From Escherichia coli (GTDB lineage Bacteria > Pseudomonadota > Gammaproteobacteria > Enterobacterales > Enterobacteriaceae): a stretch of 64,000 bases of DNA. The notes below the pieces were generated by a model. That model was not told the origin of the DNA and searched no databases. It was given only the letters and a program-made list of their open reading frames with translations. This document shows, in pieces, positions 13,300 through 52,780 of the stretch; the stretch's first letter is position 1; every line of letters starts with the position of its first letter. The stretch is taken from NCBI RefSeq assembly GCF_003334815.1, contig NZ_QOWO01000001.1; one strand, written 5' to 3'. Position numbers and translations under genes: made by a program.

Positions 13300-13485
13300 A
13301 ATACCCGATCTTCTGCGCATCCTCGCGACTAATGACAACCCTAACCCAGCTCTATGTGGGTAAAGCCTCTCATTAGCCGCGCGAACCTCTGCAACGGAAG
13401 ATCATTCATAGCAACAATACATTAGTTTCCAGTGAATTGCTGCCGTCAGCTTGAAAAAAGGGGCCACTCAGGCCCCCTTTTCTGA
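13300..13485 (+). ncRNA. sraG: Probable SraG (PsrO) sRNA, antisense to the pnp leader; boundaries approximate
   Basis: Placed from recall of an sRNA in the rpsO-pnp intergenic region opposite pnp; the shared hairpin at 13454-13482 could terminate a plus-strand transcript. Exact ends not determinable here. Confidence 0.3.
13454..13482 (-). terminator. rpsO Rho-independent terminator (hairpin usable on both strands)
   Basis: Minus strand AGGGGGCC-TGAGT-GGCCCCT followed by TTTTTT, directly after rpsO stop. Confidence 0.85.
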
Positions 13486-13497
13486 AACTCGCAAGAA

Positions 13498-13863
<366 letters not shown>

Positions 13864-15337: not shown

Positions 15338-15405
15338 GACCTGATAAGACGCGCCAGCGTCACATCAGGCAATCCATGCCGGATGCAGCGTAAACGCCTT
15401 ATCCC
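15338..15405. repeat. Pair of REP elements downstream of infB
   Basis: GACCTGATAAGACGCGCCAGCGTCACATCAGGC and GCCGGATGCAGCGTAAACGCCTTATCC. Confidence 0.7.
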
Positions 15406-15424
15406 GCATGGAACCCTAAAAACC

Positions 15425-20089: not shown

Positions 20090-20145
20090 GCCCACCCCCA
20101 AGACATAAAAAAAGGGCCTAAAGCCCAGTTATTCTGTAGTCAGAT

Positions 20146-20171
20146 AACAAAAAACCCCGATAAATCGGGGC
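20146..20171 (-). terminator. Rho-independent terminator/attenuator between metY and rimP
   Basis: Minus strand GCCCCGAT-tt-ATCGGGG followed by TTTTTTGT; a second weaker GC hairpin plus T7 lies at 20107-20126. Confidence 0.7.
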
Positions 20172-20295
20172 TTTATATAACTGAACCCTATAACCGCAAC
20201 TGCGGTCTGGAGCACTTTCCAGAAGGATTTTTTCAAATCCCACTACGAAGGCCGAAGTCTTCACAGTATATTTGAAAAAGGACTCTAAGGGAAAG

Positions 20296-20372
<77 letters not shown>

Positions 20373-24154: not shown

Positions 24155-24241
24155 TGGTACCGAGGACGGGACTTGAACCCGTAAGCCCTATTGGGCACTA
24201 CCACCTCAAGGTAGCGTGTCTACCAATTCCACCACCTCGGC
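24155..24241 (-). tRNA. leuU: tRNA-Leu (GAG anticodon)
   Basis: Reverse complement reads GCCGAGGTGGTGGAATTGGTAGACACGCTACCTTGAGGTGGTAGTGCCCAATAGGGCTTACGGGTTCAAGTCCCGTCCTCGGTACCA, 87 nt. Confidence 0.95.
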
Positions 24242-30253: not shown

Positions 30254-30285
30254 TAAAAGGCCGCATAGCGGCCTTTTTCCTTTCT
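30254..30285. terminator. Bidirectional Rho-independent terminator between convergent yhbY and greA
   Basis: GGCCGC-ata-GCGGCC flanked by A-run upstream and TTTTTCCTTTC downstream. Confidence 0.8.
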
Positions 30286-30321: not shown

Positions 30322-30798
<477 letters not shown>

Positions 30799-30892
30799 TT
30801 GTTATACCTCTTGAATATTCCTGATAGGGCAAGTCTTCACCCACCCCGGCTGTTCGGCCTGCCCGGCATAACTCCTTACCGGGACCAGAAGC

Positions 30893-30926
30893 AAAAAAAT
30901 ACCGACCCGGGTACAAGTCCCAGGTC
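30893..30926 (-). terminator. graL: Hairpin plus U-run in the greA leader (probable terminator generating GraL short transcripts)
   Basis: Minus strand GACCTGGG-ACTTGTA-CCCGGGTC then GGTA and TTTTTTT, about 95-130 nt upstream of greA ATG. GraL assignment from recall. Confidence 0.5.
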
Positions 30927-31045
30927 AGCTACAATTCACATTTTGATAGTCATTTTACCCTGAAGTTCCCGAAGGGTCATCGTTTACTTTATAGGGCGTT
31001 GCGCCGTAGTATGACGGCTCGATTCCAGGTTGTTAGCGCGAGATT

Positions 31046-32479
31046 ATGCGATTTTCCAGATTTATCATCGGATTGACCAGCTGTATAGCGTTCAGTGTTC
31101 AGGCCGCAAATGTTGATGAGTACATTACTCAACTCCCCGCTGGTGCCAACCTTGCCCTGATGGTGCAAAAAGTCGGCGCGTCGGCCCCCGCTATTGATTA
31201 CCACAGTCAGCAGATGGCGCTGCCTGCCAGTACCCAGAAAGTGATTACTGCGCTGGCGGCGTTGATTCAACTCGGCCCCGATTTTCGTTTTACCACGACG
31301 CTTGAAACCAAAGGCAATGTGGAAAACGGCGTACTTAAGGGTGACTTAGTGGCGCGATTTGGTGCCGATCCGACGTTAAAACGTCAGGATATTCGCAATA
31401 TGGTCGCGACTTTGAAAAAATCTGGCGTCAACCAAATCGATGGCAATGTGTTGATAGATACCTCCATTTTCGCCAGCCACGATAAAGCCCCCGGCTGGCC
31501 ATGGAATGACATGACACAATGCTTTAGCGCTCCGCCTGCCGCCGCCATAGTTGACCGCAACTGTTTCTCCGTCTCGCTCTACAGTGCCCCAAAGCCTGGT
31601 GATATGGCTTTTATACGCGTGGCATCTTATTACCCCGTTACGATGTTCAGCCAGGTACGCACCCTCCCCCGTGGTTCTGCCGAAGCGCAATACTGCGAAC
31701 TGGATGTGGTGCCAGGCGACCTGAACCGCTTTACGCTGACGGGATGCCTGCCACAACGTTCTGAGCCGCTCCCGTTGGCTTTTGCCGTGCAGGATGGAGC
31801 CAGCTATGCCGGTGCAATTCTGAAAGATGAGTTAAAACAGGCGGGTATCACCTGGAGCGGAACACTGCTGCGCCAGACTCAGGTTAACGAACCTGGAACG
31901 GTAGTTGCCAGTAAACAGTCGGCCCCGCTGCACGATCTGCTTAAGATTATGCTGAAAAAGTCGGACAACATGATCGCCGATACGGTTTTCCGCATGATAG
32001 GCCATGCGCGCTTCAATGTGCCTGGAACATGGCGGGCCGGGTCGGACGCCGTGCGTCAGATCCTGCGCCAGCAAGCCGGTGTCGATATTGGAAACACCAT
32101 TATTGCCGATGGTTCAGGGCTTTCGCGGCATAACCTGATTGCCCCCGCCACCATGATGCAGGTGCTGCAATACATTGCCCAACACGACAATGAACTTAAC
32201 TTTATCTCCATGCTGCCGCTGGCGGGCTATGACGGCTCTTTGCAGTACCGTGCAGGTCTGCATCAGGCGGGCGTGGATGGAAAAGTCTCAGCGAAAACCG
32301 GTTCGTTGCAGGGGGTATATAACCTGGCGGGATTCATTACCACAGCGAGCGGGCAACGAATGGCGTTTGTGCAATATCTTTCTGGCTATGCAGTAGAACC
32401 TGCGGATCAGCGTAATCGCCGTATTCCGTTAGTGCGTTTTGAAAGCCGTTTGTATAAAGATATTTATCAGAACAATTAG
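31046..32479 (+). CDS. dacB: D-alanyl-D-alanine carboxypeptidase/endopeptidase PBP4
   Basis: ORF track 477 aa; signal peptide; active-site STQK. Confidence 0.96.
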   Translation: MRFSRFIIGLTSCIAFSVQAANVDEYITQLPAGANLALMVQKVGASAPAIDYHSQQMALPASTQKVITALAALIQLGPDFRFTTTLETKGNVENGVLKGDLVARFGADPTLKRQDIRNMVATLKKSGVNQIDGNVLIDTSIFASHDKAPGWPWNDMTQCFSAPPAAAIVDRNCFSVSLYSAPKPGDMAFIRVASYYPVTMFSQVRTLPRGSAEAQYCELDVVPGDLNRFTLTGCLPQRSEPLPLAFAVQDGASYAGAILKDELKQAGITWSGTLLRQTQVNEPGTVVASKQSAPLHDLLKIMLKKSDNMIADTVFRMIGHARFNVPGTWRAGSDAVRQILRQQAGVDIGNTIIADGSGLSRHNLIAPATMMQVLQYIAQHDNELNFISMLPLAGYDGSLQYRAGLHQAGVDGKVSAKTGSLQGVYNLAGFITTASGQRMAFVQYLSGYAVEPADQRNRRIPLVRFESRLYKDIYQNN

Positions 32480-52659: not shown

Positions 52660-52780
52660 GTGCGGCCTGAAAAACAGTGCTGTGCCCTTGTAACTCATCA
52701 TAATAATTTACGGCGCAGCCAAGATTTCCCTGGTGTTGGCGCAGTATTCGCGCACCCCGGTCTAGCCGGGGTCATTTTTT
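52660..52780 (+). ncRNA. arcZ: ArcZ (RyhA/SraH) Hfq-dependent sRNA, convergent with arcB
   Basis: Sequence GTGCGGCCTGAAAAACAGTGCTGTGCCC...GCGCACCCCGGTCTAGCCGGGGTCATTTTTT matches recalled ArcZ (121 nt) with terminal hairpin CCCCGGTCTAGCCGGGG plus T6; 3' end overlaps arcB stop. Confidence 0.9.

Follow-up and report, generated by a model that had tools for sequence, protein, structure and literature searches.

The hairpin and U-run in the leader of greA are almost certainly the GraL intrinsic (Rho-independent) terminator, the attenuator of E. coli greA, an element that is already known, having been published in 2010, curated in Rfam and characterised experimentally. GraL is an unusually imprecise intrinsic terminator that takes part in the feedback setting of the anti-backtracking factor GreA and is in addition the source of a small RNA, and the case mainly shows that a true attenuator can be recognised from sequence alone. 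In the window, by which the whole stretch of 64,000 nucleotides analysed is meant, the genes ftsH, rlmE, yhbY, greA, dacB and obgE mark a segment of the E. coli chromosome, and the element is found in the dacB-greA intergenic region, directly upstream of greA and on the same strand. The observations made here concern its anatomy and fold, the Rfam match, identity with MG1655, covariation and the lack of a competing structure in the transcribed leader; what is said on the size of the transcripts, their release, the efficiency of termination and the dependence on GreA comes from papers that studied the identical sequence.

30322..30798, minus strand: greA coding sequence, 158 aa (list of open reading frames; GreA annotated in MG1655)
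31046..32479, plus strand: dacB, diverging from greA (list of open reading frames; annotation in MG1655)

Read directly on the minus strand, GACCUGGG (30926..30919) pairs with CCCGGGUC (30911..30904) in an 8-bp stem with one G-U, as the original prediction had it. The pairs are G30926-C30904, A30925-U30905, C30924-G30906 and C30923-G30907 in the first half of this core and U30922-G30908 (the sole G-U), G30921-C30909, G30920-C30910 and G30919-C30911 in the second. The core is followed by GGUA (30903..30900) and then by U7 (30899..30893), the last U of which (30893) precedes the A of the greA ATG (30798) by 95 nt, so that both the predicted distance of 4 nt between the 8-bp stem and the U-run and the predicted distance of about 95 nt to the start codon (30893 - 30798 = 95) are confirmed by the sequence. 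The 8-bp stem is, however, only part of a longer one, as three more basal pairs (U30927-G30903, C30928-G30902 and G30929-U30901) extend it to 11 bp (30929..30901) with three G-U and 7 G-C pairs, a version given by both the terminator scan and RNAfold. A single A separates the full stem from U7, and the U-run thus begins 1 nt and not 4 nt past it. Positions with a plus sign are counted below as in the published work, which numbers from the P1 start as +1 and describes no start farther upstream.

30919..30929, minus strand: 5' arm of the terminator stem, GCUGACCUGGG (terminator scan and RNAfold; tested for covariation)
30912..30918, minus strand: terminator loop, ACUUGUA (RNAfold; sequence and length differ between species)
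30901..30911, minus strand: 3' arm of the terminator stem, CCCGGGUCGGU (terminator scan, RNAfold and covariation counts)
30889..30900, minus strand: A-U7-GCUU tail (+48..+59), in which release occurs imprecisely (sequence; equal to the published AU7GCU2)

The 11-bp hairpin is the minimum-energy as well as the centroid structure in RNAfold, with a folding energy of -19.6 kcal/mol and a z-score of -4.17, and none of 200 dinucleotide shuffles folded as well. A lax terminator scan of 3 kb returned 7 sites as compared to 3.6 +/- 2.3 in shuffled sequence, so that the terminator pattern alone is weak evidence; the site in the greA leader is the longest among the 7 (11 pairs, 7 of them G-C). What is present on the transcribed strand is a stable G+C-rich hairpin followed by one A and directly thereafter by U7, the arrangement of an intrinsic terminator. 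The arms GCUGACCUGGG and CCCGGGUCGGU with AUUUUUUUGCUU after them correspond to the stem of 11 bp and the subsequent AU7GCU2 (A-U7-GCUU) by which Potrykus et al. 2010 (PMC2836576) describe the terminator of GraL.

The identity of the element with GraL is further supported by its surroundings. A 401-nt query (30700..31100) shows 100% identity with E. coli K-12 MG1655 and occurs in every one of the 5426 complete E. coli genomes, with an identity of at least 99% in 5414. The MG1655 RefSeq record lists only coding genes at the greA leader and no RNA feature, which is an annotation gap and not counter-evidence. The Rfam family RF01769, "Enterobacteria greA leader", matches with 127.5 bits at a gathering score of 60 (E = 3e-24) and over positions 1-124 of the 124 in the model. 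Transcription of greA proceeds from a pair of promoters that overlap, P1 dependent on sigma-70 and P2 dependent on sigma-E (Potrykus et al. 2010, PMC2836576), and elements of both are found in the expected positions, those of P2 matching the sigma-E consensus GGAACTT N16 TCNAA as quoted in the legend to Figure 1 of the same paper.

30894..31015, minus strand: match to Rfam RF01769 (covariance model; 30894..30947 alone is transcribed from P1)
30975..30980, minus strand: -35 hexamer of the sigma-70 promoter P1, ATGACC (promoter scan; a presumed assignment of the hexamer that fits a +1 at 30947)
30952..30957, minus strand: -10 hexamer of P1, TAAAAT, after a 17-nt spacer (promoter scan; sigma-70 dependence according to PMC2836576)
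30963..30969, minus strand: -35 element of the sigma-E promoter P2, GGAACTT (sequence; match to the consensus in PMC2836576)
30942..30946, minus strand: -10 element of P2, TCAAA, 16 nt past GGAACTT (sequence; same sigma-E consensus)
30947, minus strand: P1 start (+1), A followed by U (30798 + 149, as the greA AUG is at +150; ApU priming in vitro)
30936, minus strand: P2 start (+/-1 nt), an A with another A after it, 11 nt past the P1 start (fits the use of ApA for P2)
30930..30947, minus strand: unpaired 5' segment of GraL, +1..+18, AUCAAAAUGUGAAUUGUA (scrambling weakens GreA autorepression; no competing fold)
30889..30947, minus strand: GraL small RNA, longest form from P1 (P1 +1 and published chain lengths)
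30799..30888, minus strand: remainder of the greA 5' UTR, in read-through transcripts only (sequence; deletion past +59 leaves autoregulation intact)

Counted from P1, the published coordinates are +150 for the greA AUG, +19..+48 for the arms of the hairpin and +59 for the end of the U-rich tail (Dylewski et al. 2019, PMC6829880), and this numbering fits the present sequence exactly, with +1 at 30947, +19 at 30929 (the first base of the stem), +48 at 30900 (the A) and +59 at 30889 (the U with which GCUU ends). For the P2 start an uncertainty of 1 nt is left, because the offset between the P1 and P2 starts is given as 11 bp in one paper (PMC2836576), whereas transcript lengths in the other imply 12 nt (PMC6829880). 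The element, originally described as merely GraL-like, is on the strength of stem and tail, numbering, the RF01769 match and the identity with MG1655 the GraL terminator itself. It shares with GraL of E. coli K-12 the stem, the A-U7-GCUU tail, the promoter elements, the AUG at +150 and the neighbouring dacB, and there is no difference in sequence; it is only the span of the Rfam model (30894..31015) that extends beyond the RNA. Of the 124 positions of RF01769 about 68, including three 5' hairpins (30948..31015), are located upstream of the P1 start in promoter DNA shared with dacB, and the conservation of this part is probably conservation of promoters and not of RNA structure. A possible dacB promoter, TTTACT-18-TAGTAT, was noticed by eye at 30983..31012 on the plus strand, where it is below the threshold of the scan.

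Is the hairpin also maintained in other species? With the conserved promoter block as DNA pattern, 120 loci of other Enterobacterales were retrieved from contigs representing one genome per species and covering among other genera Escherichia, Salmonella, Citrobacter, Klebsiella, Enterobacter, Kosakonia, Yersinia, Serratia, Pantoea, Erwinia, Dickeya, Pectobacterium and Brenneria. Stretches of 65 nt beginning at the P1 start gave 112 distinct leaders, in which RNAfold predicted a hairpin at the position of the terminator, and in 111 of the 112 this hairpin is followed by a U-rich tail (6 T or more in a window of 8 nt past the stem), the sole exception being Tenebrionibacter intestinalis. For the 11-bp stem of E. 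coli, pairs were counted on a plain MAFFT alignment (A1), with controls in which the partners were slid by 1-3 columns. Across the 112 leaders standard pairs are found in 91.7% of the stem cells as compared to 19-56% with slid partners, changes on both sides of a pair occur in 9 of the 11 stem pairs, and the covariation score of 0.312 was reached by none of 500 shuffles (0.211 +/- 0.009). RNAalifold retained just 6 apical pairs on the MAFFT alignment, for which reason the explicit pair counts with their controls were relied upon. The basal pairs are less regular in alignment A1, with 21-25 unpaired cells at three columns, and part of this irregularity is alignment slippage. In agreement with these counts, 17 of 18 stem substitutions among four species were found to keep the pairing (PMC2836576). 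It is the structure rather than the sequence that is conserved at the orthologous loci, as befits a terminator. The GraL segment +1..+18 is fairly well conserved in the same alignment.

Some of the leaders show features of their own. In many Enterobacterales outside Escherichia the stem has close by on its 5' side an A-rich run, AUGCAAAA, whose complementarity to the U-tract lengthens the predicted helix (leaders L003, L024, L033, L034, L040, L057 and others; columns 9-14 with 55-62 of A1). In E. coli, which has UGUGAAUUGUA, most of this pairing of the 5' A-rich run to the U-tract has been lost, a loss that may bear on the imprecise termination in E. coli. Two insect-associated species depart from the leader rule. 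Tenebrionibacter intestinalis (L101, 1026..1090) retains the hairpin and has GUAAGACUGCUG in place of the U-tract; in Serratia symbiotica (L092, 1452..1557) the stretch between the P1 -10 hexamer and AUGCAAAA is missing and the hairpin is considerably reduced in length. In both leaders attenuation may be absent or changed.

How does the terminator act on greA expression? Northern blotting and in vitro transcription, which had been proposed as checks of the attenuator, had already been published for this very sequence, and they support the prediction of an intrinsic attenuator that yields short leader transcripts, as both the short RNAs and their release were seen (PMC2836576). About two thirds of the greA transcripts end in the leader. 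In single-round transcription, purified RNA polymerase with either sigma factor produced clusters of RNAs of 50-60 nt from P1 and 40-50 nt from P2, and bead-release assays demonstrated that the short leader RNAs were set free from immobilised templates, the Gre factors being without effect (PMC2836576). In vivo, Northern blots detected clusters near 55 and 45 nt, only with the terminator present. The 3' ends were found to be spread over about 10 positions, giving P1 transcripts of 49-59 nt. Shortening of the stem from 11 to 7 bp lowered the efficiency 4-fold, and the three basal pairs, by which the full stem exceeds the 8-bp core, govern the imprecision of release (PMC2836576). In reporter fusions the terminator reduced greA-lacZ read-through about 4-fold, bringing the expression of P1P2-lacZ down to the level of the whole region (PMC2836576).

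A second study showed that GreA itself influences this termination (Dylewski et al. 2019, PMC6829880). Deletion of greA derepressed the fusion about 3-fold, and the GreA variant D41A failed to repress. GraL decreased about 4-fold in the greA deletion and was restored by GreA (PMC6829880). The effect was followed with the fusions NDS, Ter-Scr and GraL-Scr: it survived replacement of the promoter and deletion of everything past +59, and it was weakened when +1..+18 was scrambled or the arms of the hairpin were swapped (PMC6829880). It was independent of Hfq, Nus factors and sigma-E and was not seen in vitro, and the authors concluded that GreA, be it directly or indirectly, raises together with a further partner the termination at GraL (PMC6829880). 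Since the feedback was not reproduced with pure components, an additional factor is implied.

The sequence and the published data give the following course of events. Transcription starts from P1 (+1 at 30947) 18 nt and from P2 (+1 near 30936) 7 nt upstream of the hairpin, and the nascent RNA folds at once into the 11-bp G+C-rich hairpin (+19..+47) with A-U7-GCUU directly after it, whereupon RNA polymerase lets go of about two thirds of the chains, scattered over +49..+59. The released chains are the GraL RNAs, 49-59 nt long when started at P1 and about 37-48 nt when started at P2, and the remaining third is extended by read-through to the greA AUG at +150 as greA mRNA. Catalytically active GreA leads in vivo to more GraL and less read-through, closing a negative feedback that requires the GraL sequence +1..+48, with promoter and downstream leader being dispensable. 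GraL once released is reported to act in trans as well, with nudE as its likeliest target in the opinion of the authors.

This last step raises the question of whether the hairpin might serve mainly as the 3' end of the trans-acting small RNA GraL with nudE as target, the attenuation of greA being a by-product. Overproduction of GraL brought a sequence-specific gain in fitness and changed the levels of more than 100 transcripts (PMC2836576), and the authors of the second study consider that GraL acts in trans too, probably on nudE, which they name as its likely target (PMC6829880); the relatively good conservation of +1..+18 of GraL would also be in line with a trans function. Against such a ranking of the two roles stand the roughly 4-fold reduction of greA-lacZ read-through by the terminator (PMC2836576) and the finding that the terminator mediates the GreA feedback in cis with no need for Hfq or for GraL supplied in trans, and the authors themselves regard the cis role as the older one (PMC6829880). 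A mainly trans-acting hairpin therefore appears to be the less probable reading, although one that keeps some weight, and the trans small-RNA and attenuator roles are compatible and not mutually exclusive.

If GraL is an attenuator of greA, is it a structural switch or a plain terminator? In a classical switch an antiterminator formed from upstream leader RNA would compete with the terminator hairpin. Such an antiterminator was reported to be detectable in each greA/rnk leader cluster (Naville and Gautheret 2010), and the consensus of RF01769 contains three hairpins 5' of the terminator. These 5' hairpins, however, map to 31015..30948, upstream of the P1 +1 (30947), and are absent from RNA started at P1 or P2. 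The candidates of Naville and Gautheret were sought between the edge of the upstream gene and the terminator irrespective of transcription starts, a span definition that, we infer, resembles the span of the RF01769 model. Primer extension gave four signals, P1-P4, over the 250-bp intergenic region (PMC2836576), with no start described upstream of P1. In the transcribed leader the RNA ahead of the 3' arm is nearly unstructured, as no competing fold was found in +1..+29 (0 kcal/mol) or +1..+36 (-0.2 kcal/mol), compared with -18.9 kcal/mol for the terminator. Only 18 nt precede the stem in transcripts from P1 and 7 nt in those from P2, and neither a leader-peptide reading frame nor a ligand- or tRNA-binding domain nor a match to a further Rfam family is found ahead of the terminator; an AUG-UGA at +7..+12 of GraL has no Shine-Dalgarno sequence and is not conserved in the greA-leader alignment. 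An antiterminator model was rejected for E. coli on these grounds, as the 5' hairpins precede P1 +1 and no fold is formed by the 18 nt that are transcribed, and a classical switch is highly improbable. Given the lack of a competing structure in the transcribed leader, GraL is a constitutive partial terminator under the modulation of factors and no structural switch.

That the hairpin is a chance inverted repeat without function, or a terminator for the opposite (dacB) strand, has practically no probability left, because, common as the lax terminator pattern may be (7 sites as against 3.6 expected in 3 kb), the hairpin is kept with compensatory changes in 112 distinct leaders, its fold in E. 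coli has a z-score of -4.17, the plus strand continues after the hairpin with AGCTACAATTCAC and has no T-run, dacB runs away from the hairpin, and functional data on the terminator have been published (PMC2836576), with conservation and the missing T-run excluding both possibilities.

As a partial, factor-modulated terminator GraL can be compared with several known systems. With canonical terminators such as lambda tR2 and trp t it shares the G+C-rich hairpin, the directly following U-run and factor-independent release. It differs from them in its long stem, stems of 11 bp amounting to 12% of 148 surveyed terminators (PMC2836576), in release over about 10 positions instead of 1-3, in its location in a 5' leader and in an efficiency of only about 67%. 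Like the leader-peptide attenuators of trp and pyrBI, riboswitches and T-boxes, GraL sets downstream expression by premature termination in the 5' UTR. In contrast to these, it works without a transcribed antiterminator, no leader peptide fits into 18 nt, and its effector GreA raises termination instead of relieving it. Among small RNAs of dual function that derive from a 5' UTR, the authors cite the SreA riboswitch RNA of Listeria, with which GraL has in common that a leader transcript ended prematurely has a reported action in trans as well; at about 37-59 nt GraL is much the shorter of the two, and it has no ligand-binding aptamer.

Downstream of GraL a second hairpin follows right after the tail.

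30861..30882, minus strand: second leader hairpin, CCCGGUA-AGGAGUUA-UGCCGGG (E. coli sequence)

The same place is occupied in Citrobacter, Salmonella, Enterobacter and further genera by a hairpin whose sequence is unrelated (leaders L002, L022, L039, L060, L088 and others). The first 45 nt past the U-tract fold with a mean of -14.8 kcal/mol in 88 distinct leaders, compared with -11.2 kcal/mol for mononucleotide shuffles, and in many Enterobacteriaceae the structure of this second hairpin is kept and its sequence is not. Deletion of the sequence past +59 did not affect GreA autoregulation (PMC6829880), which implies that any role of the second hairpin lies elsewhere. It could be imagined that it is a functional element, for example a 5' stabiliser or a processing determinant that yields the P3/P4 5' ends of greA mRNA, but this must be considered doubtful. 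A leader reading frame starting with the ATG at 30869 (10 codons, MPGRPNSRGG*) and preceded by AAGGAG was rejected, since the spacing to the Shine-Dalgarno sequence is only 2 nt; in E. albertii the ATG is replaced by GTG, and in Citrobacter and Salmonella the sequence is unrelated and the hairpin alone persists. The AAGGAG/ATG stretch is accordingly treated as the loop of a hairpin rather than as a gene.

Other RNA elements were observed elsewhere in the window. A perfect 10-bp hairpin at 30255..30277 (both strands), AAAAGGCCGC-ATA-GCGGCCTTTT, separates greA from the convergent yhbY, flanked by an A-run and a T-run and with sub-threshold Rfam matches to the terminator part of STnc540; from its sequence it looks like a bidirectional terminator for greA and yhbY. 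Rfam families above threshold are SraG, the S15 leader, naRNA4, the rimP leader, two tRNAs and ArcZ, with matches at 13310..13481 (plus strand), 13711..13825, 15338..15408, 20107..20207, 20299..20372 and 24158..24241 (all minus strand) and 52660..52767 (plus strand), all of which are expected for this region of E. coli.
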